Notes: generated by a model not told the origin, from the sequence alone. A stretch of 64,000 nt of DNA from an uncultured bacterium (GCA_963727525.1 CAVSGO010000002.1:32001-96000), one strand, 5' to 3'; counted from the first letter of the stretch, positions 9,802 through 58,721 are shown. Made by a program: numbers and translations.

Positions 9802-10119
9802 CTAGTCGTACAGCGCCTTCACCGCCGACCAGGTCGCACGCTCCGCCTCCACCGCGGGCTCGAGTCCGGTGAACCAGCAGGCGTAGTGGTACGACTGCGG
9901 GAGCGAGGCTCCGCCTCGCGAGCTGAAGACGGTCGGCATGACGACGATCCACATATGGTAGCTATCACCGTATGGCCCAACGGTCACGTGCCCGGTCTCG
10001 CAGGGGCCGGCCGTGTCCATGTCAGTCACGGCCAGACAGGAGCAGTCCTGGCACGGGTAAACAAGGTATGTGGCGAACTCGGCATCGCCCGTGACCTCGA
10101 CCGCTGCGCCGGCGCAAGT
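9802..10119 (-). pseudogene. C-terminal fragment of a fourth paralog of the secreted tandem family
   Basis: Open for 105 codons plus stop: TCAGAAVEVTGDAEFATYL...QDC...TAGPC...YACWFTGLEPAVEAERATWSAVKALYD. It aligns by eye to the paralog C-termini and has no signal peptide or proper start. Confidence 0.65.
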
Positions 10120-11173
10120 CTACTCGAAGAGAGCCTTCACCCGCGACCACGACGTGGGTTCGACCGGATCCACGATGGTGAAGCCGCTGAACAGGCACAC
10201 GTAGTCGTACTCGGTATCCGCGCCCGGGGGCGGCGTGTGGGTCGCCGAGCCGACCCAGAACCAGATCGGCGCGCCCTGCGGATAGCCGGTGATCGTCATG
10301 TACGCTTCCTGGCAAGGGCCCGCGGTCGCCGTCTGGAGCACGCTCACGAGGGTGCAGTCCTGGGGGCCCAGTTCGTACATGGCCGTCTCATACTCGGCAT
10401 CGAGGGTGATGTCGATTGCGCCGGTAATACCCATGTCGAACGTGTACCAGTCGGTGTCGCGATAGTTCTGGCCTCCGTTGGACAGATACCAGCCGCTCGT
10501 GCCGCACACCGTGGCCGTGCCCTCCGCGTTGTGCGAACTCACGTGGAAGAACGGTTGCTCGTCCGTGTTGCAGCCACTATCGAAATGGTCCACGTAGCCA
10601 TCGTGCAGGGGGCTCGCCCTCGGGGACGCCATCGGAGGGGCATGTGAGGACACAGTCGGGGTGCTCCGCAACGTCCACGACGTAGTCGCCGAACGAGCCG
10701 CCGTAGCCGTCGATGACGATGAAGTAGGTCTCGCCGGCCGTGAGCCACACGCCATCCAGCTTGGAAGAATAACTGAAGCATGGCGGACCGAAGTAGAAGT
10801 CGTCGTTGCAAGCCACGAGGTTCAGTGCCGAGTCGTACATGAAGACCTTCGTGTCATAGCCGGAATCGCAGAGATCGACATCGATGGCGAGGTCGTTCGG
10901 CGGCGTGAAGGCGTAGGCGACGTCGGGCGACGTCGAACCGGTGTAAGGACAGGCTTCGTCGTAGTCGTTCGTGAAGCCGGCGGTCGTGCCGGTATCGGTG
11001 AACGGGAGCCCGGGGATCACGAACGCGTCGGCGAGCGTATCGCCGCCCTGGCGATCGACGGGGATGTTCTCGGGAGTCACCGTCGCCGGCTTCACCGGCG
11101 CCTGGTTGCCGAGATCCACGGCCAGGGCGCCGGTCGAGAGGGCCAGCACCGCCATGATCGACATCGTCTTCAT
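10120..11173 (-). pseudogene. secreted paralog 3, split by a 1-bp frameshift (or assembly error)
   Basis: ORF 10577..11173 (N-half) and ORF 10120..10755 (C-half) join into a full paralog (EGEPPLHDGYVD) if the G5 run at 10608-10612 is G6. Confidence 0.85.
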
Positions 11174-11213
11174 CGTCGATCTCCCCCTTATCGCCGGCCG
11201 GTGTCGGCACCAC

Positions 11214-12290
11214 TCATTCGAACAGTGCTTTCACCCGGGACCAGGACGTCGGTTCGACTGCGTCGACTTCCTCGAGGCCCGAGAAACTGCACACGTAGTC
11301 GTACTCGTTGCCGGTGTCGTAAGGCGGCGCGAAACCGGTGGGGCCTACCCAGAACCACACGTCGCCGCCCAGAGAGTAGCCGCCGATCATCATGGTCACT
11401 TCCAGGCACGGGCCGGCGGTGGCGGACTGGACGACGGCGACCGCGTCGCAGTTCTGGGGAAAGAGTTCGAACATCACCGTCGGCGACTCCGCATCGAGCG
11501 TGATGTGGATCGAGCCCGTGGGGCCCATGTGCAGGATAAACCAGTCGGTGTCGCGGTGGCCCACACCGTCGTTGTCGTCGTACCAGCCGCTCACGCCACA
11601 GAGCGTGGCCGTTCCGGGGGCGTTCGCGTCGCTCAAGATGGGGTAGAACGGATGGCCCGGTGCGTTGCAACCGCCGTTCCAGTAGTCGACGTAGCCGTCG
11701 ACGAGGGGCGGTTCGTCCTCGGGCACCCCGACGGCCGGACAGGTGATGTCGCAGGGCACGTACTCGTCGACATCCATGATGTACGGACCGTACGAGTCGC
11801 CGAATCCATCGACGACGATATGGTACGTCAGGCCCGCCTGCAGGGGCACGTTCTCCACCTTGGAGGCATACACGTAGCAGGGGGGGACGAAGTAATGGTC
11901 ATCGTTACAGGCGATGATGTGGAAATAGGGGTCATAGACGTAGACCTTCGTGTCGAAGCTCGAGTAGCAGAGGTCCACGTCGATGGCGACGTCGTGCGGC
12001 GGCATGAAGGCATAGACGACATCGGGCGCGGACGAATCGCCATACGGGCAGATGACGTCGTAATCATCGTGGTAGCCGGCCGTCGTGCCCGCGTCGCTGA
12101 ACGGCAGCGACGGGATGGGAAAGGCATCGGCCACCGTGTCGCCACCCTGACGTTCGACAGGGATGTTCTCCGGGACGACGGGCACCGCCTTCTTGGGTGC
12201 CGTGTCCCCGGGATCGAGGGCGAGGGCCGGCGTAGCGGGCGCCAGAACGAGAAGCATCGAGCCGAGAAAAAGCACGTTCGACCTGGTCAT
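11214..12290 (-). CDS. secreted Cys/Asp/Tyr-rich protein, paralog 2 (PPC-like beta-sandwich domains possible)
   Basis: Signal peptide MTRSNVLFLGSMLLVLAPATPALA. Shares RQGGDT, CPY, DVDLC.S.FDTKVYVYD, ACNDD and RDTDW with its neighbours. Ends SWSRVKALFE. Confidence 0.85.
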   Translation of the reverse strand: MTRSNVLFLGSMLLVLAPATPALALDPGDTAPKKAVPVVPENIPVERQGGDTVADAFPIPSLPFSDAGTTAGYHDDYDVICPYGDSSAPDVVYAFMPPHDVAIDVDLCYSSFDTKVYVYDPYFHIIACNDDHYFVPPCYVYASKVENVPLQAGLTYHIVVDGFGDSYGPYIMDVDEYVPCDITCPAVGVPEDEPPLVDGYVDYWNGGCNAPGHPFYPILSDANAPGTATLCGVSGWYDDNDGVGHRDTDWFILHMGPTGSIHITLDAESPTVMFELFPQNCDAVAVVQSATAGPCLEVTMMIGGYSLGGDVWFWVGPTGFAPPYDTGNEYDYVCSFSGLEEVDAVEPTSWSRVKALFE

Positions 12291-12365
12291 GAGCGTGTCC
12301 CCTGTTTCCGTCATTCTACCACGACACGGTCGGCGATTCCAGGGGCTCCGCCGGCGTACCAAGAA

Positions 12366-12395
12366 CCGGGGCCGGCGCTTGCGCACCGGCCCCGG
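12366..12395 (-). terminator. GC-rich hairpin after paralog 1
   Basis: Stem CCGGGGCCGG...CCGGCCCCGG followed by TTCTT on the minus strand. Confidence 0.6.
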
Positions 12396-12426
12396 CATGA
12401 CCAGAAATCTGGTTCTCGAATCAGGC

Positions 12427-13485
12427 CTAGTTGAACAGGGCCTTCACGGTCGACCAGTTCGCGGGCTCGGTGGCCACATCGGGCTCGAGACCGGTGAAGC
12501 TGGCGACGTAGTTGTACTCGTTATCCGAACCGGACGGCGGTGCGAAGACCGTCGAACCGGTCCAGAACCACACAACCGAGCCCTCGGTGTAGCCGGTGAT
12601 CGTCATGTAGGCCTCGAGGCACGGGCCGCCGGTGGCCTGCTGAGCGACGGCGACGGAAGCGCAGTCCTGGGGGCTGAGCTCGAACATGTAGGTCGCCTGC
12701 TCGGCGTCCAGCGTCACGTCGATCGCGCCGGCCGGACCCATGGTGATGAGGTACCAGTCGGTGTCACGGTACTGCGCGCCACCCGGCGAGCTGTACCAGC
12801 CGCCAACGCCGCACAGGGTCAGGTTGCCGAAGTCGTCGGCCAGAATCGTCTGGAACGGGGTTCCGGCAGTGTTGCAGCCGCCGTTGTAGTGGTCCACGTA
12901 GCCGTCCTGCAGCGTGGGCTCGCCCTCGGCAACGCCGCCGGCCGGGCAATCGAGGACGCACGGGAAGTTCTCGACGACGTCCATGGCGTAGTCACCGAAC
13001 GAGCCGCCGTAACCGTCGACGATGATGTAGTAGGTCTGGCCGGCCGTCATGGCCACGGCCTCGACCTTCGAGGAGTACACGAAGCAAGGAGCGCTCAGGT
13101 AGAAGTCGTCGTTGCAGGCGACCAGCGCGAGCGAGCTGTCATACACGTAAACCTTCGTGTCGTAGCTCGAGTTGCACAGGTCGACGTCGACGGCGATGTC
13201 GGCGGCGGGAGTGAAGGAGTAGCACACGTCCGGCGCGGTCGAGCCGGTGTACGGGCAAGCCTCGTCGTAGTCGTTGACGTAGCCGGAGGTCGTGCCGCTG
13301 TCGTTGAACGGAATGCTCGGAATGACCATCGCGTCGAAGATGGTGTCGCCACCCTGGCGGTCGGCGTTGGGGACGTTCACGGGAACGACAGGATTGGCCT
13401 TGATCGGAGCCTGGTTGCCGAGATCGCTGGCGGCAGCAACGCCGACCAGGCCGAGAACCAGCGCGAGCACTAACAACTTCCGCAT
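12427..13485 (-). CDS. secreted Cys/Asp/Tyr-rich protein, paralog 1
   Basis: Signal peptide MRKLLVLALVLGLVGVAAA, AGGGGAG RBS, same motifs as paralogs 2 and 3. Ends NWSTVKALFN. Confidence 0.9.
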   Translation of the reverse strand: MRKLLVLALVLGLVGVAAASDLGNQAPIKANPVVPVNVPNADRQGGDTIFDAMVIPSIPFNDSGTTSGYVNDYDEACPYTGSTAPDVCYSFTPAADIAVDVDLCNSSYDTKVYVYDSSLALVACNDDFYLSAPCFVYSSKVEAVAMTAGQTYYIIVDGYGGSFGDYAMDVVENFPCVLDCPAGGVAEGEPTLQDGYVDHYNGGCNTAGTPFQTILADDFGNLTLCGVGGWYSSPGGAQYRDTDWYLITMGPAGAIDVTLDAEQATYMFELSPQDCASVAVAQQATGGPCLEAYMTITGYTEGSVVWFWTGSTVFAPPSGSDNEYNYVASFTGLEPDVATEPANWSTVKALFN

Positions 13486-13509
13486 GGTAGGGTCTCCCCT
13501 CTGGTGTTT

Positions 13510-13529
13510 TGTTTCCGGGCCCGGAAACA
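13510..13529. promoter_or_regulatory. perfect 20-bp palindrome upstream of paralog 1
   Basis: TGTTTCCGGGCCCGGAAACA, next to an AT-rich intergenic region (about 13630-13800). Confidence 0.55.
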
Positions 13530-13857
13530 CTGTTAATTTGGTGCGGGCGCGAGTGGGCGCCCTACCAAGACCTCAGGAACGTCGAGACGAGATGGTCGAC
13601 ATTTCCCGGCGTCTGATCGCGGAACCGCGGCACTTCAGGCATAAAAGATCAAATTAATCTTTTTGCCTGTTGCCACTATATTTTTCCGTTTCACCAGACA
13701 CAACGGAGATTCTAGCAGGAATTTTTCGAACTGTAAATACATAAAAATTTCAATGTGTTTGATTCTTTGCACTGCATGCCGATTGTGATTGACCAGTTTC
13801 TTCAAGCTGCCTGCTTCCCGCGGTTTGCGGAATCGTGAGCGCCGGTGCCCATGAGAA

Positions 13858-13886
13858 AGCGACCGCCCCACCTGGGAGCGGTCGCT
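13858..13886 (-). terminator. hairpin terminator of the CC-repeat gene
   Basis: AGCGACCGC...GCGGTCGCT stem about 30 nt past the stop, followed by TTCTC on the minus strand. Confidence 0.55.
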
Positions 13887-13915
13887 CTGTCGCGGATTCG
13901 ATCGTGGCGCGCGGA

Positions 13916-14614: not shown

Positions 14615-14826
14615 CTCGGTATCCTCTCTAGTGACGAACCCGCGGGGCGGGTCTGGCCTCACGGTGGGGACTTCGTTGTAGAATACAGGATAAAAAGACT
14701 AAATGAAACCTTGCGGGGGCGCAACCGGCACCGCATTGCCTGGCGTTGCATTGCCCCGGGCTGTCTGCCGTCGCATAATGACGGGAGCCGCCCGACCAGT
14801 GAGGTGCCGCATCGAAAGGTGCCGCC

Positions 14827-19834: not shown

Positions 19835-22800
19835 ATGCGGATGGTGAAGCGGGCGTTGACGAACCTGGCGATGGCCAATGGCGGGATCCGCCAAATCCCG
19901 ATCATCCTGTGTTGCCTGCTGACGTCGGTCACGTTCGCGCGAGCCGAGGTGGTCACGGGCACCTATGACGGCAATGGTGCGGCGCCGCGCACCGTTGGAG
20001 GCGTCGGCTTCCGCCCGGACGTCGTGATCATCAAGGGCGACAACTCGCAGTCGGCCGTGATCCGCACGTCGGCGATGCCCACGGACCGCACCAAACAGCT
20101 CGCTCAGGATGAGCCTCTCCTCAGTAACCGCATTCTCGACTTCACTGCCGACGGCTTCGTGGTCGGTTCAGACGCCGACGTGAACACGGGCGGCGTGCAA
20201 TACGCCTGGGTGGCGTTCTCGAACGACCCGGGCTCGATGGCCGTGGGGAGCTACCTCGGCATCGGCCTATCAAGCCGCGACGTGACGGGTCTGGGATTCG
20301 CCCCCGCCGTGGTGTTCGTCATCGGCGACAACAACCACCGGCCGCACTGGAAGAGTCTGGCGATGCCGGCCGGCGAGTCGATGGCATTCGACGATGAAGG
20401 GTTGCGTGGCGGCCTGATCACGGACCTCCTGACCGACGGATTCCATGTGGGTACCGACTCGTCTGTCAACGGCTTGTTCACGACCTACTTCTACGTCGCC
20501 TGGGGAGAGAGCCCCGGTAGCCTCGCGGTCGGCACATACGTCGGCAACGGAGCGAACAAGCAGGACGTCCACGGCATGGGTTTCACGCCGGAATGGGCTC
20601 TCGTGAAAGCCGGTGAGGGCCTGCCCGCGGTGCAGAAACCCAAGGCGCTGGGTGGCGACAAGTCGGGCTTCGTGACGCCCGAGGCCTTCTCGAACAACGC
20701 CCTCATGAAGGTCGAGGGCGATGGCATCGAGGTCGGCAACGACTACCGCGTCAACGAGCAGGGTCGCACCTACTACTACCTCGCCATCGAGGACAACCAT
20801 ACCCACCTGTGCGACCTGCAGGTCGGCCTGGCGGCCGATGATTCCACGCCCGCGGTGGGCGAGTCCGTGACCTTCACGGTCGATCTGCTCAACGACGGCC
20901 CCGACGATGCGACCGGCGTCGCATTGACGGTCGTTCTGCCGACAGGGCTCTCGTACGTGAGCAGCGCCCCCGCGGTCGGCACCTACGACGACGTGACCGG
21001 GATCTGGACCGTCGGCGACCTGCACAAGCACGTCGCGACGGAGCTCGCCGTGACCGCGCTGGTTGGCGCTGGCGCCGCCGGTCAGTCGCTGACCGCGACC
21101 GCCGGAGTGTCTGCGCTGGTCGAGAGCGACACCGATGGCAGCAACAACATGGCCGGGGCGAACGTGATCGTGCCGGGAGCGGATCTCGCCGTCACGCTCG
21201 TTGTCGACAACCCGACGCCGAACGAGGGCGAGCAGGTCCACTACACCGCGACCGTCAGCAACATCGGACCGGATGCCACAACCGGCGTGGCGCTCACGAT
21301 GACCTGGCCGGCCGGTCTCTCCTTCAACAGCGCGGCGGCCAGCGTCGGGCACTACAGTTCCGTCACGGGTATCTGGACACTCGGTGACCTGGCCGTGGGC
21401 GGCACCGAGACGCTCGTCATCACGGGCCGCGCCGGCAACGGCACGGCGGGGCAGACCCTGACCACCGCGGTCGCCGTCACCGCGAGCGATCTCGGCGACC
21501 CCGTGAACGCCAATGACGCGGCGAGCGTCGACGTGATCGTGAACGCCACGAGCAGCGACCTCGGGATGCTGCTCGCGGCGGACGACCCGCAACCAGACGT
21601 GGGGCAGACCGTGACCTTCACGGCCACGCTCACGAACGGCGGCCCCGATGACGATTCGGGCGTGGTTGCTTCGTTCACGCTGCCCGCCGGGTTGACGTAC
21701 GCGAGTCACAGCGTCGGCGCGGGCGCCTTCGACCCGGGCACGGGCACCTGGACCGTGGGCGGTCTGGTCGCTGGCGACGCCGTCACGCTCCTGGTCGATG
21801 CCACCGTCGATGCGGGCACCGGCGGGTCGACGCTCACGGCCACCGTGGCTGTCGCCGCTGCCGATCAGCCTGATCCGCAGGCCGCCAATGACACGGCCAG
21901 TACCAGCATCACCGTCACCAGCGCCGACCTCGCCATCACCCTCGGCGTCGACACGCCCAGTCCCAACCCGGGCGATCCGGTCACCTTCACCGTCACCCTG
22001 CACAACAACGGGCCGAGCGCGGCTACCAGCGTCGCGGCGGTGGTGGCGTTGCCACCGGAGTTGACCTTCGTGAGCAGCACCCCGGAGGCGGGCGCGTTCG
22101 ACAGCGGCACCGGCACGTGGTCCCTGCCGGCGATACCGGCCCACGGCACGACGACACTGCAGATCGCCACCAGCGCCGACGGCATGGTCGGCGGCGAGAA
22201 CCTGACGACGACCGCCACCATCACGGGCGCCGACCAGAGCGACCCGGTGACTGCCAACAACACGGTGAGTCTCGTGATCGGCGTCACCAGCGCCGATCTC
22301 GGGCTCGCGATCGCCTTCGACGACACCACGCCCGACGTGGGGCAAACGATCCTCGCCACCATCACCCTGGCCAACGCGGGACCGGACGACGTCACCGGTG
22401 CCGAGGTGGCCATGGCGCTACCGCCGGGGCTGACGCTGGCGGGCAATAATGTCTCGGCCGGCTCTTACGACCAGGCGACCGGAAGCTGGCACGTGGGCGA
22501 TCTCGCCGCAGGCGCCGGCGCCACTCTGGACTTGACGCTGGTGGTCGACGGCGACACCGCCGGCGCCACGCTCGGCATCAGCGCCAACGTCAGCAGTGCC
22601 GACCAGGGTGACCCCGCGGCGGCCAACAACGCTGTGAGCGGGAGCGTCGTCGTCACCGACAGCGATCTCGCCGTGAGCTTCACGGTCGACGACGCGCATC
22701 CCGACGAGGGGAACCATGTCGTCGGTAGGGTGGTCGTGACCAACCTCGGTCCCGACCTCGCCACGGGCGTGACCCTCGACGTGCCGATGCCCGCGGGCCT

Positions 22801-25800
22801 GGTCTTCGACTCGTACCTTGCGGACGACGGCACCTTCGGCGCCGATACCGGTGTCTGGGCCCCCGGCGCCATCGCCACCGGCGACAGCACGTGGCTCGCG
22901 GTGACGGCCGCCGTCGACACGGCCACGGCGGGCACCACGCTCACCTGGGCGGCCGCGGTGTCCGGCGCCACCCAGGGCGACAGCGAGGCGGCCAACGACA
23001 CGGCCAGCGTGGAGATCACGGTCACGGCCGTCGATCTCGCGGTGGGCCTCGGCGTCTCGGACGAGACTCCCGACGAGGGCCAGACGGTGACGTTCACGGT
23101 GAACGTGGCCAACAATGGCCCCGACCCGGCCTCCGGCGTGTCGCTCGACGTCACCATTCCCGCGGGCCTCACCATCACAAACCACTCGGCCGGCGCGGGG
23201 ATCTTCGACGAACTCACGGGACACTGGAACGTCGGCGGCATCGGCGCCCAGACCGGGCAACTCCTTCAGCTCACCGCCGCGGTCGACGCCGGAACGGCGG
23301 GCGATACCCTCATGGTCGCGGCCGCCGTGGCCGGGGTCCAGCAGGCCGATCTCGTCGCGGACAACGACACTGCGAGCGTCTCGCTCGTGGTGAATGCGGC
23401 CGATCTCGGCATCGCGCTCGGATTCAGCGACAGCACGCCAGTCGAGGGACAGACGATCACCGCCGCAGTTGTGGTGTCGAACGCCGGCCCGCAGCCGGCG
23501 ATGGGCATCGGCGCCCTGGTGGGGCTGCCGACCGGCCTCACCTATGCCAGTCACTCGGTGATCAATGGCGCCTTCGATCCCGACACCGGCCTCTGGAACC
23601 TGCCGGCGTTGCCGGTGGGTGGCTCCGCCGCATTGCTGCTCACCGTCACGGTGGATGCCGGTACGGCGGATACCCAGCTCATCTCCACGGCGCAGATCAC
23701 GGCTTCGAGCCAGGGAGACCCCGTTCCGGGAAACAACGCCGTCGCCACGCCGATCACGGTGGCGAACCCGCAGGCGGTGCAGGCCGAGATCCGACCCTTC
23801 AGCCAGACGCGTCGCCGCCTGCTGCCCGGCGGCGCGGTCGACGACGTGCTGCGCCTCGATCTCATCAACCCCTCGACCCAGGCGCTGCCACTGACGTCGG
23901 TCACGTTCACGAATCCGGTCACCGGCGCCGCGAACCAGACGGTCCAGGACGCCGCCTGGAGCGGCCTGGTGCTGTTCCACCGCGAGGCGCAGATCGCGGC
24001 GCCGGTGATCATGGGCGAGGAACCCGCGGCGGCGCAGTCGTTCGTGAACGGCACCACCACGTTCGCCGGACTCGACCTGAATATCGCCGCCGGCGACACG
24101 CTCCACCTGATCCTGCGTGGAGCCGCGTCTCTCGGCGCGCCGGATGCCCTCGAGCTAAGGCCGGAGGTGCAGGATGGCGACGCCTTCACCTTCTCGCGCG
24201 ATATCGCGGTGGAGGGATCCTGGCCCCTGACCGCCAACGGCGAGCTGGCGGTTGATGGCATGACGCGCGCCCAGATCACGGTGCACGAAGTCGCGAGCAC
24301 GGTGCTCCAGCTCGGCTCCATCAACAACGAGTCGATGGATGTGACGATCCCCGGCAACGGCGGCGAAGCCGATCAGCTCACCCGCATCAACGTGGAGAAT
24401 CTGGGCACGGCCGGCCTGATCACCGCCGCGCGCGCCCTGGCGGATGATGGCGATGGCGTCGTCGGTGCCGGCGACGCTCCCATCGCCGATTTGATCTGGA
24501 CCGGCGCCCGCTGGGAAGCCACGGGACTCGCGTGGCCGGTTCCGGCCACGGGTCTGCGCATCCTCGTGACCGTCGACATCGCCGGGGACGCCACCGGCGG
24601 CACGGTGCGCCTGAGCCTGCCGGCGGGCGACGACACGGGCATCGGCATGGCGAGCGGCAACGATGGCCCCATCGACGAGCCGGTGATCTCCAGCAACCAG
24701 ACCGTGAGCACCGTCGACCACGTCGTGGTGTCGACGGAGGCGATCGCGTCGCAGGTACTTGCACCCGGTCAGTCGGCCGTACCCTTGATGCACCTCTGGG
24801 CCACCAACCTGTACAGTGGCGTCGACCAGGAACTCAGGGGGCTGATCGTGCACAGCGACGTGCGCGGCCAGTCCGGTGCAAACCAGGCACAGCTCGATTC
24901 CGTCCTCGCTCAGCTCAACCTGCGTCGCGATGGCAACGGCGATGGCGTGCTCGGAAGCCTCGGCGACGATCCGATCATCGCGCAGGCAACGTTCTCCAAC
25001 GGAGTGGCCACCTTCCAAGGCATCGGCTGGAGCATCCCCGCCGATGGCGAGAGGCATCACCTCTTCCTCACCGGGGCCGTGTCGCTGCATCGCGCGGCCG
25101 ACGGCGACACGATCGCGGTCTCGGTCGCCCAGGGCGGCGACCTCGTATTCGTGCGGCCGGCGGCACTCGTGGGCAGTTGGCCGCTCGACAGCGGCGCACG
25201 CCATCGTGTCGACGGCATGGTGGCCCGTCAGATCGGGACCACCGACGTCCAGCCCGTGACACTCACGGCCGACGACGGGCCCGTGGCCGCGCTCGATGTC
25301 GTCATTCCGAGCAACGGCTATGCGTCCGACACGCTCACGCAACTCAACCTCGTCAACCGCGGCTCCGCCACCACTGCCGACATCGCCGCGCTCCAGCTCT
25401 GGGTCGACGACGGCGACGGCGTCTTCCTGCCCGGCAGCGACGCGATGGTCGCCACCATGGCGGGCGTGGATTCCACCTGGGTGGCGCCCAACCTCGCGCT
25501 CGCGGTGCCGGCCAGCGGACTGCACCTCTTCGCGGGCCTGACCGTGACATCGGCACCGTCCGATTCGGCCACGGTGCGCCTGCGCATCCCCGTGAACGGC
25601 GTGAGCATGGCGTCAGCCAATGACGGCCCCCGCGACGCCGCCGTTCTCAGCAACACCACGTTGCTCATCTCGACCGCACCGCTGCTGGCGAACCTCCAGG
25701 TGGCACCGGCACGCTCCACCGTGGGTCAGACCATCACCGTCACGATGAACGTGACCAACATCAGTGGCGAGGATGTCGCGGGCATCACGCCGTCGGGACT

Positions 25801-28294
25801 CGCGATCAGCGGCGACGGAAGCGCCAACCTCATGAGCGGGCCGCAGCCGGCGAGCCTCGATCTGGTTGCGGGGGATTCCGGGAGCTTCGTCTGGACCTAT
25901 GCCTCCATGGTCACCGGTGCGACCTATGTCACTGGCCGTTGCGAGGGCACTGGCGCCGGCGGTCAGATGCGCCGCTCGCTCGCCACCACCTCGGGCGCGC
26001 ACCTCATCTTGAATCCCGTCGGCGGCCTCGACGTCTACCCCGTGGCCAACATGCCCAATTCCATCAACCGCGGACAGACCGGCGTGGTACCACTGACACT
26101 CACGCTCGTCAACGCGGGCGACGAGACCACTGCCGACCTGCGCCTGGACCGTCTCGTGATCACGCTCGACGATGGGTCCGGAAATCCCGTGGTCCCGAAC
26201 GACCTGCTTTCCCGCGCCACGGTGAACGAGGGCGTGAATGTCTATTGCGACGACACCACTCTCGAGACCAGCGGCCAGACGGTGACCCTCGACCTCGACC
26301 CGCAGGTCATCGTGACGAGCCGCGAGCCGGTGACGCTGGGCCTGCGCCTGGACATCCGGACGAACCCTTCGGTGTCGGCGTTCCGCGTCATCCTCGCCGC
26401 GCCCACCGACTTCACGGCACACGACAACGTGAACGACGCCATCCTCGGCGTGGCGCTGCACAACGGCAGCTTCCCGTTCCCGTCGGGCGTGGGTCATCTC
26501 GTGGCGCAGGCTACTGGACTCACCGTCATGCGGCCGGACCAGGTTCCGCGCACCGCCGGCGTCGGCCAATCCGGGGTCGAGCTGCTGCGCCTCGAATTGC
26601 TGGGTGGCGGTGATCCCGACCTGCCGTCGGACGTGCAGATCAGCGCCTTCACCGTGTCACTCACCGACACGCTGGGACATCGCCTGGCCGACGCATCCGC
26701 GCATCTCCGGCGACTGGACGTGGTCGGCCCGCTGGCCGTCCATGCCCAGGCCATGCTCACCGACGCGGGCGACTCCGTCGTCACCTTCCAGCTCGTCCCG
26801 GCCATCTCCGTCCCCGTCGGTGACGTGGCCGTGCCGGTGACGATCATGGGGCTCACCGCGGACGACGCGACGCTCGGACCCATCCGGCTGCGTCTTGACG
26901 ACGCCGCGCTCTTCGCCGCGCACGACGGCAACGTGGGTGCGGCCGTGCCCGTGACCTATCAGCCCGCCGTGATCAGCGGGCCCGATGTCACCATCCAGGC
27001 ACCGGTCGTCACGGTCTCGGTGTCGGCAACACCACAGCTCCCGGCCTACCTCACCCCCGGCGCACGCGGCGTCCCCACGCTCACGGCTCACGTGAGTCAC
27101 ACCGGCAACGCCGGCGTGGGCGCCGCCGGCCTCGATACGCTCCGGCTGGTGTGCCTCGACGATCACCGGCAGGCCCTGGATCCCGCGGCGCTCTGCGACC
27201 GCCTGCGCGTGAGCTGGCGCGGCACGCCGTGCGCCGATCTGTCCCCGCCGTCGGCGTCGAACGGACTCGTACGGGTGCCGCTGAGCGGTGTGCTCATCGC
27301 CGCCGGCGAGACGGGCGATCTCGAGATCACACTGGACCTGGAGACCAACGTCCCGGCCGCCGGCTTCGAGATCGTGCTTCCGGACTCGGGCCTCGTGGGG
27401 CACGACACGAATCTCGTCACGCCGGTCACGATGCGTCCGGCCGCCGGAACCGCGCCTCCCTACAGTTCCGGCCTCGCGCACATCGTGTCCGCGGCCGAGG
27501 AACTGATCGTGGGCTTCACCGACCAGATGCCGCCGCTCGTGGCGGGCGACGGCAATGCCGTCACGATTGGCGCGCTGACGTTGACCAACACGGCCGTCGC
27601 GGGTTCGGGCAGCCTCGTGCTTGCCGGTCTCACGCTGCGTGGCGCGGACGACGCCGGACTCATTCGCGTGCTCGGCGGCGCTTGCGTCGAGTTCTCGGCC
27701 GGTGACGCGGCCGAGCCGTGGGCCGTGGTCAGCGACGTGGCGCTCACCGACTCCACGGTGGTGCTGACCGGAGCGACGCCGCTGGAGATCCCGGCCGCGA
27801 CCACGATCACGTTGCCACTGCGAGCCCGCTTCCGCGACGGCACGCAGGGTGGTCTGCGCCTGGGCTTCGCCGAGGGCGACGTCGAGGCCACCCAGCCCAA
27901 CGACGGGGCCGGGACGGTCCGGGTCCGTCCGGCGCCGGGCACGGCCTTTCCTTTCTGGACGGAGGCCGGTCACTTCAGCGATCTGAGCCTCGAGGCCAGC
28001 TACATCAACTTCCCGAATCCCTTCGCTGCCGGGCGGGAAGCCACCGCCTTCGCCTTCATGCTTGCGCACCCGGCCGACGTGAGCCTGCGCATCTACTCGG
28101 CAAGGGGCGATGGGGTCGTCACGTTGCTGAACAGCGTCGCGCTCCCGGCCGGCCTGCATCAGGACATCGCCTGGGACGGGCGCAACGGTCAGGGGCAGAC
28201 GGTGCGCAACGGCGTGTACCTCGCCGAGCTGAACGTGCGGTACGGCGACGGTGGACACGACCGTCTCCTGCGGAAAGTGGCGGTGGTGCGATGA
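19835..28294 (+). CDS. 2819-aa secreted adhesin-like protein with tandem DUF11 repeats and a C-terminal FlgD-Ig/T9SS-like domain
   Basis: Eight tandem repeats of the form DL.....D...P..G..VTFT....N.GPD.ATGV...W.VG.L...DP...N..AS. C-terminus NFPNPF...IYSARG...WDGRNGQGQTVRNGVYL. Confidence 0.9.
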   Translation: MRMVKRALTNLAMANGGIRQIPIILCCLLTSVTFARAEVVTGTYDGNGAAPRTVGGVGFRPDVVIIKGDNSQSAVIRTSAMPTDRTKQLAQDEPLLSNRILDFTADGFVVGSDADVNTGGVQYAWVAFSNDPGSMAVGSYLGIGLSSRDVTGLGFAPAVVFVIGDNNHRPHWKSLAMPAGESMAFDDEGLRGGLITDLLTDGFHVGTDSSVNGLFTTYFYVAWGESPGSLAVGTYVGNGANKQDVHGMGFTPEWALVKAGEGLPAVQKPKALGGDKSGFVTPEAFSNNALMKVEGDGIEVGNDYRVNEQGRTYYYLAIEDNHTHLCDLQVGLAADDSTPAVGESVTFTVDLLNDGPDDATGVALTVVLPTGLSYVSSAPAVGTYDDVTGIWTVGDLHKHVATELAVTALVGAGAAGQSLTATAGVSALVESDTDGSNNMAGANVIVPGADLAVTLVVDNPTPNEGEQVHYTATVSNIGPDATTGVALTMTWPAGLSFNSAAASVGHYSSVTGIWTLGDLAVGGTETLVITGRAGNGTAGQTLTTAVAVTASDLGDPVNANDAASVDVIVNATSSDLGMLLAADDPQPDVGQTVTFTATLTNGGPDDDSGVVASFTLPAGLTYASHSVGAGAFDPGTGTWTVGGLVAGDAVTLLVDATVDAGTGGSTLTATVAVAAADQPDPQAANDTASTSITVTSADLAITLGVDTPSPNPGDPVTFTVTLHNNGPSAATSVAAVVALPPELTFVSSTPEAGAFDSGTGTWSLPAIPAHGTTTLQIATSADGMVGGENLTTTATITGADQSDPVTANNTVSLVIGVTSADLGLAIAFDDTTPDVGQTILATITLANAGPDDVTGAEVAMALPPGLTLAGNNVSAGSYDQATGSWHVGDLAAGAGATLDLTLVVDGDTAGATLGISANVSSADQGDPAAANNAVSGSVVVTDSDLAVSFTVDDAHPDEGNHVVGRVVVTNLGPDLATGVTLDVPMPAGLVFDSYLADDGTFGADTGVWAPGAIATGDSTWLAVTAAVDTATAGTTLTWAAAVSGATQGDSEAANDTASVEITVTAVDLAVGLGVSDETPDEGQTVTFTVNVANNGPDPASGVSLDVTIPAGLTITNHSAGAGIFDELTGHWNVGGIGAQTGQLLQLTAAVDAGTAGDTLMVAAAVAGVQQADLVADNDTASVSLVVNAADLGIALGFSDSTPVEGQTITAAVVVSNAGPQPAMGIGALVGLPTGLTYASHSVINGAFDPDTGLWNLPALPVGGSAALLLTVTVDAGTADTQLISTAQITASSQGDPVPGNNAVATPITVANPQAVQAEIRPFSQTRRRLLPGGAVDDVLRLDLINPSTQALPLTSVTFTNPVTGAANQTVQDAAWSGLVLFHREAQIAAPVIMGEEPAAAQSFVNGTTTFAGLDLNIAAGDTLHLILRGAASLGAPDALELRPEVQDGDAFTFSRDIAVEGSWPLTANGELAVDGMTRAQITVHEVASTVLQLGSINNESMDVTIPGNGGEADQLTRINVENLGTAGLITAARALADDGDGVVGAGDAPIADLIWTGARWEATGLAWPVPATGLRILVTVDIAGDATGGTVRLSLPAGDDTGIGMASGNDGPIDEPVISSNQTVSTVDHVVVSTEAIASQVLAPGQSAVPLMHLWATNLYSGVDQELRGLIVHSDVRGQSGANQAQLDSVLAQLNLRRDGNGDGVLGSLGDDPIIAQATFSNGVATFQGIGWSIPADGERHHLFLTGAVSLHRAADGDTIAVSVAQGGDLVFVRPAALVGSWPLDSGARHRVDGMVARQIGTTDVQPVTLTADDGPVAALDVVIPSNGYASDTLTQLNLVNRGSATTADIAALQLWVDDGDGVFLPGSDAMVATMAGVDSTWVAPNLALAVPASGLHLFAGLTVTSAPSDSATVRLRIPVNGVSMASANDGPRDAAVLSNTTLLISTAPLLANLQVAPARSTVGQTITVTMNVTNISGEDVAGITPSGLAISGDGSANLMSGPQPASLDLVAGDSGSFVWTYASMVTGATYVTGRCEGTGAGGQMRRSLATTSGAHLILNPVGGLDVYPVANMPNSINRGQTGVVPLTLTLVNAGDETTADLRLDRLVITLDDGSGNPVVPNDLLSRATVNEGVNVYCDDTTLETSGQTVTLDLDPQVIVTSREPVTLGLRLDIRTNPSVSAFRVILAAPTDFTAHDNVNDAILGVALHNGSFPFPSGVGHLVAQATGLTVMRPDQVPRTAGVGQSGVELLRLELLGGGDPDLPSDVQISAFTVSLTDTLGHRLADASAHLRRLDVVGPLAVHAQAMLTDAGDSVVTFQLVPAISVPVGDVAVPVTIMGLTADDATLGPIRLRLDDAALFAAHDGNVGAAVPVTYQPAVISGPDVTIQAPVVTVSVSATPQLPAYLTPGARGVPTLTAHVSHTGNAGVGAAGLDTLRLVCLDDHRQALDPAALCDRLRVSWRGTPCADLSPPSASNGLVRVPLSGVLIAAGETGDLEITLDLETNVPAAGFEIVLPDSGLVGHDTNLVTPVTMRPAAGTAPPYSSGLAHIVSAAEELIVGFTDQMPPLVAGDGNAVTIGALTLTNTAVAGSGSLVLAGLTLRGADDAGLIRVLGGACVEFSAGDAAEPWAVVSDVALTDSTVVLTGATPLEIPAATTITLPLRARFRDGTQGGLRLGFAEGDVEATQPNDGAGTVRVRPAPGTAFPFWTEAGHFSDLSLEASYINFPNPFAAGREATAFAFMLAHPADVSLRIYSARGDGVVTLLNSVALPAGLHQDIAWDGRNGQGQTVRNGVYLAELNVRYGDGGHDRLLRKVAVVR
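20810..23762 (+). repeat. eight tandem DUF11-type Ig repeats of about 123 aa
   Basis: Repeats begin CDLQV, ADLAV, SDLGM, ADLAI, ADLGL, SDLAV, VDLAV and ADLGI. Confidence 0.85.
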
Positions 28295-37764: not shown

Positions 37765-38379
37765 ATGCGTTCCCTGATTCTCTTGATCGTGGTCGTGGGA
37801 CTGGCCGGCGTCCATATCGCGGCGGCCGATCCGTGCGTACTGACCTGTCCCGCCGGCGCCTTCGCCGAGAACGAGCCGCCTCTGCAGAACTACGCGGCGA
37901 ACGATTTCAACTCTGGCTGCCTCGGTCATACGGGATGGGACGCCTTCGAGCAGCTCGGCGGCGACGCGGACGGCATGCTCACCCTCTGCGGTTCGGGCGG
38001 CTGGTATCTCGGGCCGGGCGACGTTCACTACCGCGACAGCGACTGGTACATCGCCACCTTCGGCGACGGCGGCACCATCACGCTCGAGGCCGACGCCGAG
38101 GAGCCGCTCCTCGTGTTCGAACTCGGTCCCCAGGACTGCTCGCAGGTCACCGTGCAACAGCAGGTGATCGCGGGCCCCTGCGCGCCGGCCGTGATGGTCG
38201 TGACCGGCGTGCCCCACACCACGGTGTGGCTCTGGACCGGAGCCGTCACGTTCACCTCGCCCGACGGCACCACACCATACGAGTTCGACTACACGGTCAT
38301 GCTGAGCGGCCTGGAGGCGGATGTCGTGGCGGTGCAAGGCCGGTCATGGTCGACGATCAAGTCGATCTTTGCCGATTGA
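37765..38379 (+). CDS. secreted single-domain homolog of the tandem family C-half
   Basis: Signal peptide, then CVLTCPAG...ENEPPL...NSGC...LCG.GGWY...YRDSDWY...ELGPQDC...AGPC. Ends SWSTIKSIFAD. Confidence 0.85.
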   Translation: MRSLILLIVVVGLAGVHIAAADPCVLTCPAGAFAENEPPLQNYAANDFNSGCLGHTGWDAFEQLGGDADGMLTLCGSGGWYLGPGDVHYRDSDWYIATFGDGGTITLEADAEEPLLVFELGPQDCSQVTVQQQVIAGPCAPAVMVVTGVPHTTVWLWTGAVTFTSPDGTTPYEFDYTVMLSGLEADVVAVQGRSWSTIKSIFAD

Positions 38380-46775: not shown

Positions 46776-47717
46776 TCAGGGCAGCAGCGTGACCTTGGCG
46801 ACCTGCTCCCAGCCCCGACCCCGCGCCCGGGCCAGGTACACGCCCCCGGGGAGCGGCCGGTCGGCGTCGTCGCGACCATCCCAGACGACCCGCCGGGGCC
46901 CCGCCTCGAGCCGTCCGTCGAGGAGGCCGCGCACGCGCCGGCCCCTGGCGTCGTAGACCACCACCATGACAAACTGGGACTGCGGAAGAGAGAAGTCGAG
47001 GGTGGTGCGCGGGTTGAACGGGTTGGGGGACGCATGCAGGGCCACTGCGTCGGGCAGGCCGGGCGTGGCGGTGGCCACACCGGCGCCCGAGAGTGCGAAG
47101 TGACCACCGCTGACGTTCACGAGGAAAAAGGGGTTGTCGATGTCGGCGGTGGTGCCGGTGAACGTGCCGGACAGGGTGTCGGCGCTCACCGTGGACACGG
47201 CGATCGAGCCGCTGAGGCTCACGAGCTTGTGCAGGGCCGGCAGATCCTGGAACCACTGGATCAGCCCCGACACGTCGAGGGTGTCGGGCAGGGTGAACGC
47301 CTGGGCGTCGTCGATGAAGACGAACGCGGCTGTGCCGCCGGCGATGTCCACTCCAAACGTTCCCGGGTGCAATGGACCCACGGTCTTGATGAAGAGGAAC
47401 GCGCCATCGAAGGTGTCGTCGCCGTTGTCCGTGATGGCGTACACGGCCGTGGCCACGGTGTCGGCCGCCAGCGTCGTCATTCCGCCGCCCACGGCCTCGG
47501 TCTGACCGGGATCCCAGACGCCCCCCGGGCCTAGTGCCGGCCCATCCGCGGCGAACGTGCCGCTGTAGCCGGGGAACGGCGTCTGGACGTAGCTGAAGCC
47601 GAGCGTCCCGCCGGTATACAGCGTGTCGGCCCCGGTGAACTGGGCGTGAGCGGACGGAACGATCAGACAGGCGAAGAGCAGGCCGCACAGGCCCATGGCG
47701 GTGGACAGGGTTTTCAC
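46776..47717 (-). CDS. secreted protein with a C-terminal FlgD-Ig/T9SS-like domain
   Basis: GTG start after GGAGG, signal peptide, and C-terminal SPNPFNPRTT...YDARGRRVR...WDGRDD...GVY. Confidence 0.85.
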   Translation of the reverse strand: MKTLSTAMGLCGLLFACLIVPSAHAQFTGADTLYTGGTLGFSYVQTPFPGYSGTFAADGPALGPGGVWDPGQTEAVGGGMTTLAADTVATAVYAITDNGDDTFDGAFLFIKTVGPLHPGTFGVDIAGGTAAFVFIDDAQAFTLPDTLDVSGLIQWFQDLPALHKLVSLSGSIAVSTVSADTLSGTFTGTTADIDNPFFLVNVSGGHFALSGAGVATATPGLPDAVALHASPNPFNPRTTLDFSLPQSQFVMVVVYDARGRRVRGLLDGRLEAGPRRVVWDGRDDADRPLPGGVYLARARGRGWEQVAKVTLLP

Positions 47718-48011
47718 GACGACCTCCGGAACGTCGGCCAGCGTCGGTGCCGACCGGAGGGCGATCATACCATGGATCGGGCGAAGAGGCCATGCGGCCG
47801 CGGAAGGCGAACCAGGTTGGCAGGGGGGGCAATCGCCTAGGTCCAGCCCGCCTTCCGCGCCATCGAGGAGCGATGATGTCGCCGGGTGCCGGATCTGAAC
47901 CACCCGCTTCTCCTGTGACGCACGGCCGGGGCTGGAATCACACGCAGACCGAAAACTTTCAGCCCACCTTATTCACGCCGTCGCAGTAGCGATAGCGTGA
48001 AGAAGGTGGGT

Positions 48012-54521: not shown

Positions 54522-54537
54522 GTCCAGCCGGCTGGAC
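54522..54537. repeat. 16-bp palindrome GTCCAGCCGGCTGGAC, copy 1
   Basis: Perfect palindrome. An identical copy lies at 55475-55490. Confidence 0.9.
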
Positions 54538-54659
54538 CATGGAAGATACTGCCACGAAAAATAGATAGATTTTTTCCCCGCCAACCCTTGCGCCCCACCA
54601 AATATTCGCTATATTTTCGCCAAACCTCCCGACCATCCTCCCGGAAAGGTCGGTCCAAC

Positions 54660-55952: not shown

Positions 55953-57677
55953 ACCGACGCACGTACTTGGGCGGCGGCGAGCCATAGCTCAGCATCTGGT
56001 CGTGGAAAGCCTCCATCGTGAAGGAGTCGCCGGCCTTCGCCTGGAAGTCGGTGCGGATGCCGTTGATCTCGAGGTTGCCCACGTAGTAGGTGGAGAGCTG
56101 GGTGCTGGTCAGGCAAGCGCGACGCCACTTACCGGCGGCCTCGCCCTCCTCCTGGAAGCCCTGGTCCAACATCATGGCCATGGCCTGGTCCTCGGTCATG
56201 CCCTGCGTGTGGATCTTCTGGTCGATGATCGCGTTGATGATCATCCGCAGCCGCATCTTGAGCTGCTGGAGGTGGAACTCGGGACCGTCCCAGCCGGTCT
56301 CCGCCATGAGCTGCTCCGCGTACGTGGCCCAACCCTCGACGAACGTGCCGCTGCTGAAGATCGCGCGGACCGGCGTGTCGCCGTGGAACTGGTTGCTATG
56401 CGAGATCTGCAGGTAGTGCCCGGGCATCGCCTCGTGCACCGTGAGGTCCTGCAGCATGTAGTCGTTGTACTCCTTGTAGAACGACTCCTTGCGCTCGGGC
56501 GACCAGTCGGCCGGCGTGGGCGCGATGGCGATAGAAGCACTTGAGCTGAGGCTCCAGAGGACCCGGCGAATCGCAGTACGCGATGTAGAGCCCCCGCTGG
56601 TGCTCGGGCATGACGATCAGCTCCACCGGTTCGTCAGGCACGGTCACGAACTGCCTGTCGCGCACGAACTGGGTGATCCGCCGCAGATCGTCGCGCGCCT
56701 CGTCGACGATCGTCGCGTCGGTGGGCCGATCGTCCGCGAGGCTGCGCATCACGGCCGCGATCACGTCGTGATGCGAGAGCGTCGATGGATCCGGCGCGCT
56801 CGGTCAGCCGCGTGCGGTAGAGCGGCAACGCCAGGTCGTACATCGTGCTGGTGGTAGCCTTCAGATCCTCCTGCGCGCGCGCCAGGATGTCCTCGGGCGC
56901 CAGATCGCTGGCGAGCGAGAATCGCAGCTTCTTGCGCCACTTCTCGGTACCGAGCCGGAAGTCGCCATCCGAGCGCGGCAACAGCTCATCCTCGAGCCAG
57001 TGGCCGTACGCCGAGAGCGCGGCGATCGCCTCGGCACGCGGCTTCGCGAGCATCGCCTGCGAGCCGGGCGCCTTGTCGATGGACGCCTGCAACCCATCGA
57101 GGATGAGGCTGATCGAACCCTGGTTCTGGGTGATCGCCGTCTCGGTGAACATGCGGGGCGGGTGCAGGAGGTTCACGCGTGCCGTGTCCAGGAGCTTGGG
57201 GATCGCCTCGAGCCGCACCTTCACGCTCGCCAGTCGGTCCGGCAGCGGTGCGAACTCCCGCTGCAGCAGGCTGTAGATCGCGTCACCGGGATTGTAGAGC
57301 AGTGGATTCCAGGTGGCCTCGCGCAGCTCCTCGCCCTGGAAGATCTGCGAGGCGATCGCGTCGAGCAGGATCTCGCGATCGGCCTGATTCGCATCGCTGA
57401 GCTTGTTCACCTTCAGCGCCTGCAGGCTGTCCTGGTAGGCGTGGTTGAGCGCGACCCAGGCTTGACGACTCTCGGCCGACATGTCCGGCAACTCGCCGTC
57501 GTGCTCATGGTTGCCGAGCTGCGTGGCCCACACCGGATCGTGGGCATAGACGCCTTGCAGGTAGCGATCGGCGAGACCGGTGAACTGTTCGTCGGCGCTG
57601 GGCCCGCGCGAGCAGCCCGCAACCATCATGACCACCAGACCGAGACAGAGCCCGGCCGAACGCAAGTACGTGCGCAT
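55930..57677 (-). pseudogene. DUF885 family lipoprotein (metallopeptidase-like) with two frameshifts
   Basis: Three ORF pieces in successive frames: VAGC lipobox...AT.LG.H; AYCDSPGPLE; HEAMPGHYLQ, FVEGWATYAE, QLSTYYVG. Shifts near 56805 and at 56530. Confidence 0.85.
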
Positions 57678-57764
57678 GGGTGAGACCTTCCTCGTGAACG
57701 GACGGCAAGAGCTTTCATGCCGCCACCCTAGCCGACGGGCCCCACCCTGGCAACGCCCCAGGCG

Positions 57765-58721
57765 CTAGCGAAACAGCGACTTGATGGCGCCGAAGGTGGT
57801 CGGTTCGGTCGCAACGGCCTGCTCGATGACGATCTGGTCCCCGGTGCTGTGCAGGAACGGCAACGTCTGATTGTCGATGTCCCGCACATCCACGTCCACG
57901 AAATCGAGCGGCGAGGTGCCCACATCGATGGCCGTGAAGTGACACACCGCCAGCACGCCCCCATCCGTCGCCACCCCATCGAGGAACGACATCGCGAAAT
58001 GGATACTCGACGTCCCGCCTGTGGTGTAGTCGTAGAAGTAGTACAGCAACCCCTGTGTCGTGACCCAGTCACCCGGCGTCACGGCATCGAGCGCCACGAT
58101 CGCCGGATCGAAATCCACCGCGACCTCCGCCCCCTTCACCTGACTCCCCACCGCATCGATCCGCAGATCCACCGTGAAAACCATCGTCACCGGCACCGAC
58201 ACCGACGGATCAAAGTAGAGCTGACTGCTCGGCACCGTGATCAGATCCCCGGTACTGTGACCGAAGGCCAGGTCCTGGTTGGCCCCATCCCGCGCCACGA
58301 CCTGCACGAAGTCGAGAGGGGAGTCTCCGGCGGCCAGAGCGGTGAAGTGGCAGATGGCGACATCTCCGGTCCCACTTCGACCATCGCCGAGAAATGCGGC
58401 ATCAAAAAACAGCACGCCCGGAGCGACATCGTCCGTGAAGTCGTGGAAGAAGTACGGCAAACCCGATGACACGAACCAGTCACCCGCATCGATGCCATCG
58501 AGCTGAACGATCGCAGGATCATACGACATGGTGACCTCGAGGCCATAAACGTCGTCACTCGCAGCATCGATCGTGATCGAAACGGTGAATTCCGTCTGCG
58601 TGGCCACGGTAAGCGGAGGCGAGACAGCGATTTCCTGCGCTGCAACCCGCGATGCGCCCACCATCCCCATCCCCACCATCGCCGCCCCGACCAGCCAAAG
58701 CCATATTGATTTCGTCATCAT
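57765..58721 (-). CDS. secreted protein with two tandem cohesin-like domains and the short C-terminal motif
   Basis: Internal duplication FTV.I.IDA...G.EV...YDPAIV.LD....GDW...CHFTA...G.SPLDFV...RD..NQ.L.F.HSTGD. Ends EPTTFGAIKSLFR. Confidence 0.8.
   Translation of the reverse strand: MMTKSIWLWLVGAAMVGMGMVGASRVAAQEIAVSPPLTVATQTEFTVSITIDAASDDVYGLEVTMSYDPAIVQLDGIDAGDWFVSSGLPYFFHDFTDDVAPGVLFFDAAFLGDGRSGTGDVAICHFTALAAGDSPLDFVQVVARDGANQDLAFGHSTGDLITVPSSQLYFDPSVSVPVTMVFTVDLRIDAVGSQVKGAEVAVDFDPAIVALDAVTPGDWVTTQGLLYYFYDYTTGGTSSIHFAMSFLDGVATDGGVLAVCHFTAIDVGTSPLDFVDVDVRDIDNQTLPFLHSTGDQIVIEQAVATEPTTFGAIKSLFR

Follow-up and report, generated by a model that had tools for sequence, protein, structure and literature searches.

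A 64,000-nucleotide stretch of DNA from an uncultured bacterium (GCA_963727525.1, contig CAVSGO010000002.1, here C2), hereafter the window, meaning the whole stretch, encodes six open reading frames (ORFs) that end in the same short peptide. The question raised by this locus is whether that peptide is simply the close of a protein domain or a separate element with a role in protein export. An initial annotation of the window had argued for the latter, naming the peptide a candidate C-terminal sorting signal, and we recovered all six ORFs with the shared tail at the positions listed in Table 1. The tail, which we call the tag, is a terminal and portable element under purifying selection; it is linked to signal peptides, excludes the C-terminal domain (CTD) carried by other secreted proteins, takes the place of other anchors on homologous bodies, and is widespread. 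We interpret it, with a probability of about 0.6, as an undescribed portable sorting or attachment signal of Sec-exported proteins.

Within the window, the tag sits on two carrier families, in line with the initial annotation, although five of the six ORFs belong to a single Cys-rich family and only the remaining one is cohesin-like. The five ORFs credited with signal peptides are present, but that of the third paralog lies on a separate frame from its tag (10577-11173), and the ORF regarded as a fragment is indeed a truncated remnant. Comparison of paralogs 2 and 3 reproduced the reported 7 synonymous and 0 non-synonymous differences over the last 14 codons, whereas the 25 codons ahead of the tail contain 12 non-synonymous differences; this disparity indicates selection on the peptide rather than on the DNA.

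At the level of the whole genome, a loose regular expression for the motif gave 70 matches among 47,974 six-frame open frames of at least 50 residues, 69 of them lying 0-5 residues from the stop, as against 3 matches in reversed sequences and 0-2 in each of five shuffles. The tail-based profile scan that the initial annotation had proposed was carried out with a profile built from 69 tails at a cut-off of 11 bits, and it recovered 88 frames in the window's genome. In 86 of the 88 the frame ends within 5 residues past the match, and the two internal matches fall in short or odd frames. Frequent internal occurrence, which had been named as an observation that would speak against a sorting signal, is seen neither in these frames nor among the best-scoring library proteins described below.

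The tag is a tail of about 16 residues (16-20) that ends W-G/S-x-V/I-K-A/S-L-F/Y. Across the 69 tails its consensus reads V (52/69)-A/P-T/V-E (47)-P/A-x-T/S-W (64; F in 5)-G/S-x-V/I/L-K (69)-A/S-L-F/Y. In the head of the tag, E is present in 47/69 tails and the P after it in 28/69, while the place of the first P of a P-E-P-like signature is usually taken by A or T. After the aromatic there is mostly one more residue, which is R in 28/70. Only 8-9 residues follow the E-P head, with no hydrophobic stretch and no Arg cluster, in agreement with the earlier statement that the tail has neither a transmembrane helix nor a basic tail. A Cys stands 8-16 residues ahead of the W in 29/85 tails of the window's genome and 41/81 tails of other genomes, far above the Cys frequency of 2.2% over the carriers. 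In roughly a third to half of the tags, a Cys precedes the Trp by 9-11 residues, often as part of CxxC or CC.

Portability, which the window could only hint at, is evident from the proteins that bear the tag. Once their tails were removed, the 88 bodies fell into 53 unrelated BLASTP clusters, the largest being 12 beta-helix/NosD-like proteins, 12 members of the window's Cys-rich family, 7 proteins without a Pfam match and 4 with CHRD. Pfam searches on the 80 carriers outside the window recovered Beta_helix/NosD, CHRD, LTD, NIDO, PPC, DUF642, DUF4397, Calx-beta, DUF7450, Temptin_C and a cupredoxin. Against NCBIfam, carriers of this genome matched the choice-of-anchor C family (116.8 bits, just under the cut-off of 120), DVUA0089 and spondin-domain families, and carriers in other phyla matched choice-of-anchor V (81.5; cut-off 42), choice-of-anchor W (187.1; cut-off 45) and DNRLRE (59.6; cut-off 34). 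The name choice-of-anchor denotes cargo families found with differing C-terminal anchors. Carriers are small, with a median length of 241 aa, and co-occur with signal peptides as the initial annotation had anticipated: under a strict rule, signal peptides were called in 66/88 carriers, compared with 139/800 background frames and 159/240 frames with a FlgD-type CTD. A lenient version of the rule (77/88 carriers versus 339/600) was too permissive.

The tag was compared with the FlgD-Ig CTD, a type IX secretion system (T9SS)-like address module. A CTD profile that we built from 36 FlgD-Ig matches in the genome identified 240 frames, in 230 of which the domain ends no more than 15 residues from the stop; their median length is 751 aa. 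None of the 88 carriers overlaps these 240 frames, which bears out the proposed mutual exclusivity, and PF13860 has 0 matches among the 80 carriers outside the window. The four secreted FlgD-Ig CTD proteins reported for the window were likewise recovered (Table 1). Despite this exclusivity the two kinds of ending share bodies, since 23/88 carriers have a body homolog among the FlgD-CTD proteins of the same genome. In the clearest such case, two proteins encoded 4 kb from each other on contig C3 share 70% identity across 226 residues that begin at the signal peptide and reach ...FYDN(I/L)(N/D)FHQ. Directly after ...HQ(DDS/GAD)VA the two proteins part, one continuing as TEPASWSTVKALFD-stop and the other into a linker and CTD, so that the tagged protein ends in DDSVATEPASWSTVKALFD-stop and its twin reads GADVAVPDATEF... 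before its FlgD-type CTD. In the assembly, the FlgD-type CTD of this twin (C3:257191-258738, plus strand) is frameshifted. For the Cys-rich family of the window, too, a relative with a CTD exists, its identity being about 40%.

Tag and T9SS CTD are thus alike as C-terminal address modules on Sec-exported proteins within the Fibrobacteres-Chlorobi-Bacteroidetes (FCB) range, exchangeable and mutually exclusive. They differ in kind, as the CTD is a folded seven-stranded Ig-like sandwich of about 70-100 residues with K-(V/I)-x-x-x-(K/R)-like end strands, whereas the tag comprises 16-20 residues, unfolded save for one short predicted helix, and matches no CTD model. The possibility that the tag is itself a T9SS CTD of type A (Por_Secre_tail) or FlgD-Ig type was rejected, as it lacks the beta-sandwich of about 70-100 residues described by PF13860, PF18962 and TIGR04183, and PF13860 matched 0/80 carriers.

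Exchange with a second anchor is apparent in the DUF642 carrier. Its nearest homolog, 52% identical, closes with VPTEPGTWSDVKALFR; those farther removed close with VPEPxSWAL(hydrophobic)RRRR, a PEP-CTERM tail, and several of them are annotated with PF07589. In the alignment, tag and PEP-CTERM ends share one position and their first 7-8 residues align, the head V-P-T-E-P-x-T-W of the tag pairing with V-P-E-P-x-S-W. The PEP-CTERM signal (PF07589, with exosortase PF09721; PMC1569441) resembles the tag in being short, strictly C-terminal, present in dozens of copies per genome and borne by proteins with signal peptides. The two also have body families in common, namely DUF642/choice-of-anchor C, CHRD, LTD, cohesin, spondin and DVUA0089. 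What sets the tag apart from PEP-CTERM is that it lacks both the hydrophobic transmembrane stretch and the Arg cluster. PF07589 gave 0 matches at E<=0.1 in the window's genome (30 candidates scored), and the NCBIfam PEP-CTERM models matched none of the 7+80+68 carriers. No exosortase (PF09721) was found in the window's genome, which is 96.67% complete, or in five other tag-bearing genomes (G208, G209, G210, G225 and G227). Exosortase scored over the cut-off in G226 and G228, each with one tag by a DNA pattern (see below), was present as a fragment in G211, and again exceeded the cut-off in G212, which has a tag by DNA pattern and no profile match. Given its absence from the window's genome and these five others, exosortase was rejected as the enzyme of the tag.

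Comparison with the remaining short C-terminal signals likewise failed to place the tag in a described class. In a preprint (10.1101/2023.06.07.544157), tripartite sorting signals are composed of a signature motif, a transmembrane segment and a basic cluster. The tag shares with these signals (LPXTG, GlyGly-CTERM, MYXO-CTERM, JDVT-CTERM and others) a C-terminal signature in many copies on diverse cargo, often with a Cys near its start; it differs from them in having neither transmembrane segment nor Arg-rich cluster and in that its Cys is not invariant. The beta-signal of outer-membrane proteins (OMPs) is C-terminal, has an aromatic near the end and is read in the diderm periplasm. The tag is similarly C-terminal with an aromatic near its end. 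However, its carriers are soluble beta-sandwich, jelly-roll and beta-helix proteins, its aromatic is penultimate and its hydrophobic residues do not strictly alternate; an OMP beta-signal was therefore rejected on account of the soluble folds and the single residue that mostly follows the aromatic. The mitochondrial intermembrane-space targeting or sorting signal (ITS/MISS; PMC2806287) offers a further likeness, being a nine-residue amphipathic helix near a Cys that targets without a transmembrane part. It docks its Cys onto Mia40, belongs to another compartment and kingdom, and is not terminal, and the tag shows no evidence of oxidative docking. By membership tests, the tag falls outside PEP-CTERM, the tripartite signals, T9SS CTDs and the OMP beta-signal. 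No Pfam or NCBIfam model covers the tail, either in the window's genome or in other phyla, in accord with the earlier remark that no named family was known for the motif. A description of it was not found in open-access PubMed Central and bioRxiv, although subscription papers could hold one.

To establish its phyletic distribution, we surveyed close relatives and the phylum (one class, nine families, 208 species representatives) with a profile of the six window tails, and found the tag in 20/21 relatives and in 180/208 genomes of the phylum, with weaker representation in families f3 (28/43), f8 (3/8) and f7 (0/1). Across 185,579 species, represented by one genome each, the degenerate DNA pattern (T/S)WGx(V/I)K(S/A)L(F/Y)R-stop returned at least 130 stretches; the 80 loci retrieved from these hold 89 matches, all of which end at a true stop closing an ORF. 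Titles that name a taxon accompany 41 of the 80 loci, and none lies outside the FCB group: Eisenbacteria (14), Krumholzibacteria-type (6), Latescibacteria-type (6), Fibrobacteraceae (5), Melioribacter/Ignavibacteriales (5), Gemmatimonadota (2), and Zixibacteria, Effluviviaceae and 'Bacteroidetes' (1 each). With a 67-tail profile, three metagenome-assembled genomes (MAGs) yielded 54 tags (Fibrobacteraceae), 39 (labelled 'Gemmatimonadota') and 32 (Latescibacterota); the small phylum of the 'Gemmatimonadota'-labelled MAG bears the tag in 12/12 genomes. The Melioribacter and Zixibacteria MAGs gave 0 by this profile (E<=0.001), though each has at least one tag by DNA pattern.

A 30-position profile searched against 1.84 billion representative proteins recovered 735 matches at E<=0.001. 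Among the best 150 of these, the motif lies no more than 5 residues from the C-terminus in 145 and is followed by exactly one residue in 121. The five exceptions are a false repeat protein, a read-through, a 6-residue extension, a lipoprotein with four tandem tags and a duplication of domain plus tag. The lipoprotein-type library proteins P0027 and P0073 show these last two arrangements, one ending in four tandem tags and the other carrying the duplicated domain and tag both internally and terminally. When the last 40 residues of one carrier were used as a protein query, only 2 candidates with words in common were retrieved. The tag seems rare in Ignavibacteria-type genomes, with 0 profile matches in G208. 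Ignavibacteria-type loci (L110, L111, L140, L143 and L159) encode a protein of about 136-149 aa that ends in ...SSVK(R/K)TWGSIKALFR without the V-A-T-E-P head, one copy of which is a weak fn3 match.

Structure prediction places the tag outside the folded body. In the AlphaFold2 model of the DUF642 carrier (mean predicted local distance difference test, pLDDT, 85.5), the jelly roll extends to residue 191 and is followed by coil at 192-200 (pLDDT ~55-65) and a helix at 201-207. For carrier 1 (mean pLDDT 69.8, below 50 from residue 338), the model shows the last strand at 323-331, then coil (332-343) and helix (344-351). In both, the tail is detached from the body and its terminal 7-8-residue helix is unpacked. 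The 53 body clusters contradict the tail being a structural element of the preceding domain, an outcome that the initial annotation had itself raised, and the detached tail also speaks against it. The eight residues W-(G/S)-x-(V/I)-K-(A/S)-L-(F/Y), which follow an extended V-(A/P)-(T/V)-E-(P/A)-x-(T/S) stretch, are most likely a short amphipathic helix. The Cys-rich family adopts a fold of two beta-sandwiches, with the tandem collagen-binding domains of ColG as the closest PDB structure, at a low TM-score.

We then considered which machinery could read such a signal. The window's genome encodes T9SS components, with SprA_N at 70.1 bits, PorV at 54.2 and 27.7 bits, and 14 Peptidase_C25 frames over the cut-off, most of 1200-1800 aa; the best of these, PorU-type and itself equipped with an FlgD-type CTD, is encoded immediately upstream of PorV (C7:791250-794516). 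Among other tag-bearing genomes, PorV is present in 5/5 and SprA_N in 4/5. The claim of a PorV-like gene within the window was not confirmed, as the genome's four PF19572 matches all map to contigs other than C2 (C7 and C8), and the window's candidates at 40456-41547 and 28388-29524 match no Pfam family at E<=0.05. The former (plus strand) encodes a 363-aa protein that has a signal peptide and, close to its N-terminus, the haem motif CxxCH, and whose C-terminus, ...HVLY, resembles that of a beta-barrel. Phylogenetic profiling against PorV, another suggestion of the initial annotation, did not discriminate, with PorV1 in 21/21 relatives and PorV2 in 208/208 genomes of the phylum. Co-folding of PorV (C7:793497-794516, residues 25-340, 20-row alignment) with a 30-residue tail alignment scored 0.15 and 0.00 against a mark of 0.32, and speaks neither for nor against binding. 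According to a review (PMC11285876), T9SS genes are restricted to FCB phyla. The matching FCB range is the sole argument for linking the tag to the T9SS, and a weak one, since PorV-like proteins occur throughout the phylum whether or not a tag was detected.

Sequence-level tests support the earlier proposal of an export or attachment tag that serves as an alternative to the T9SS-like CTD, although a sorting role, like any destination, partner or cleavage, is an inference. On this model, the tag would occupy the end of a flexible linker leading off the folded body, where homologous bodies have PEP-CTERM or the FlgD-Ig CTD. Once the protein has passed through Sec and lost its signal peptide, a dedicated partner protein in the periplasm or at the outer membrane could recognise the exposed tail. 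The cargo, mostly small proteins with binding modules, would thereby be directed to the outer membrane, the cell surface or the matrix, and the partner might or might not remove the tag. The leading candidate for this partner would be a T9SS-associated factor, proposed only on the shared confinement to the FCB superphylum; canonical exosortase is excluded.

Several observations weigh against this interpretation. The tag has none of the features by which known short sorting signals are held in the inner membrane, lacking both transmembrane helix and basic cluster. No partner was singled out by phylogenetic profile, as PorV-like proteins are universal, tag-less genomes included. Moreover, 28/208 genomes of the phylum have no tag match though all contain a T9SS-type PorV, so that possession of a T9SS does not entail the tag; some of the 28 misses may reflect limited sensitivity of the profile, as in the Melioribacter MAG. 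All-versus-all comparison of genes in the 80 loci (1.2-kb flanks) revealed no conserved neighbour other than carriers, antisense shadows and FlgD-CTD genes. Signal peptides were called with a home-made rule rather than a trained predictor. The predicted tail helix is of low confidence (pLDDT ~30-65), and the hydrophobic moment is raised both at 100 degrees (0.40, control 0.22) and at 170 degrees (0.37, control 0.24), so that amphipathicity does not discriminate helix from strand. The amphipathic helix as first annotated is therefore weakly supported, being drawn in two carriers at low confidence, with a moment that fits helix and strand alike.

The same properties invite other explanations. 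The tag might need no machinery at all, if a short helix of amphipathic, aromatic and basic character settles in the interfacial zone of the outer membrane or the lipopolysaccharide and so tethers the protein peripherally. The predicted helix is unpacked from the body and would present W, V/I, L and F/Y on one face with K and R at its flanks, its moment of 0.40 against a control of 0.22 is reached by just 6.9% of control 10-mers, and neither neighbourhoods nor PorV profiles yielded a partner gene. Low-molecular-weight penicillin-binding proteins of Escherichia coli are anchored by C-terminal amphipathic helices, though 8-9 residues make a short helix for a stable in-plane anchor. A lipid-binding helix would require neither the single trailing residue (121/150) nor the conserved V-x-T-E-P head, and the tag replaces true sorting signals, the CTD and PEP-CTERM; we therefore regard a self-sufficient anchor as unlikely. 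A non-covalent, dockerin-like peptide that binds a common surface scaffold or the large CTD proteins, and is not read by a translocon or enzyme, would account for the pairing of small carriers (median 241 aa) with large FlgD-CTD proteins (median 751 aa). FlgD-CTD genes lie directly upstream on the same strand of 9/86 carriers against 119/2857 genes (P ~0.009) and directly downstream of 9/86 against 111/2857 (P ~0.005), FlgD-type proteins are the sole recurrent non-carrier neighbours in other phyla (8 loci), and one carrier is a double cohesin. This 2.5-fold excess in adjacency is nevertheless modest, the paralogs are non-independent and genes for secreted proteins cluster regardless; one body with either tag or CTD fits alternative addresses better than partnership, and no scaffold was identified, which leaves docking quite unlikely.

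A role in maturation or turnover rather than location is less plausible again. As a C-terminal pro-peptide or quality-control tag, the tail would be read by a periplasmic PDZ protease of S41 or DegP/Q type; its fixed distance to the free C-terminus suits a reader of C-termini, the genome has 5 S41 peptidases, and the V-A-T-E-P stretch could conceivably serve as a cleavage site. Yet S41 peptidases occur in 10/14 tree-wide control genomes while the tag occurs only in FCB-type lineages, extensions of 2-6 residues past the tag are tolerated, and exchange with sorting signals favours an address function, making this explanation improbable. That there is no module, the tail completing the fold of the domain before it or resembling other tails by chance or composition, might be entertained from the window, where one body family provides five of the six examples. 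With 53 unrelated body clusters, 70 matches against 0-3 in controls, a tail that is unpacked in two models and close paralogs that differ only in tag versus CTD, we consider it to have next to no chance of being correct.

The positions of the tags, their carriers and the contrasting CTD proteins are given in Table 1. Alongside them, the split of carrier 3 (10120-11173) reflects either a pseudogene or a fault in the assembly, and the tag of this carrier remains intact. Just upstream of the carrier cluster lies a gene for a small Ala-/Cys-rich secreted protein with CC and CxxxC motifs (13916-14662, minus strand), and the tandem carrier genes are adjoined by a radical SAM gene followed by a Memo-AMMECR1 fusion, an AmmeMemoRadiSam-type set (14827-17615, plus strand). 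A DUF885 protein is split over two ORFs (55930-57677, minus strand), probably a broken gene, with 56634-57677 covering profile positions 1-257 and 55930-56457 covering positions 361-530.

Table 1. Tags, their carriers and contrasting FlgD-Ig CTD proteins, in window coordinates unless a contig is named
Feature	Position	Strand	Description
Window	C2:32001-96000		Assembly of 4.66 Mb, 8 contigs, 67% G+C
Carrier 1	12427..13530	-	Cys-rich family; signal peptide, likely start M at 13485; two beta-sandwich domains
Tag of carrier 1	12430-12477	-	VATEPANWSTVKALFN
Carrier 2	11214..12398	-	Cys-rich family; paralog of carrier 1
Tag of carrier 2	11217-11264	-	DAVEPTSWSRVKALFE
Carrier 3	10120..11173	-	Cys-rich family; paralog frameshifted just past ...EGEPP
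Carrier 3, N-terminal half	10577-11173	-	With signal peptide
Carrier 3, C-terminal half	10120-10755	-	Other frame
Tag of carrier 3	10123-10170	-	DPVEPTSWSRVKALFE
Carrier 4	9802..10029	-	Truncated Cys-rich remnant, about 70 last residues, without signal peptide
Tag of carrier 4	9805-9852	-	VEAERATWSAVKALYD; retained at end of remnant
Carrier 5	37765..38379	+	Signal peptide and C-terminal domain only of the Cys-rich family
Tag of carrier 5	38326-38376	+	VAVQGRSWSTIKSIFAD; two residues beyond the aromatic
Carrier 6	57765..58721	-	Signal peptide and two cohesin domains; Pfam Cohesin PF00963, 53.6 bits, 2 stretches
Tag of carrier 6	57768-57815	-	VATEPTTFGAIKSLFR
CTD contrast	19835..28294	+	2819-aa DUF11-repeat protein ending ...RKVAVVR
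CTD contrast	46776..47903	-	FlgD-Ig-type end
CTD contrast	59181..63176	+	1331 aa, FlgD-Ig-type end
CTD contrast	63203..64000	+	ORF past window edge; FlgD-Ig match C2:95917-96087, window 63917 onward

To our knowledge, LPXTG, PEP-CTERM, GlyGly-CTERM and MYXO-CTERM each led to a dedicated sorting enzyme, and all have a transmembrane helix and a basic tail. The tag breaks this helix-plus-basic-tail rule, yet in genomic terms it resembles those signals and replaces them on the same cargo families. Tentatively, and at somewhat short of even odds, it may be the first short sorting signal of diderms without a transmembrane part, either as a third kind of T9SS cargo signal or as the label of a novel machine in non-Bacteroidia FCB phyla, serving some 2-3% of gene-like frames. 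As to scale, this genome has about 88 tagged proteins, and counts run to tens per genome across at least six phyla, mostly uncultured and abundant in soil and sediment, among them Eisenbacteria, Krumholzibacteria, Latescibacteria and relatives of Fibrobacteres. Records labelled Melioribacter roseus and Fibrobacteraceae bear the tag, which makes the question testable at the bench. A profile of the tag would improve the annotation of surface and secreted proteomes and provide a handle for the search for its receptor by phylogenetic profiling.

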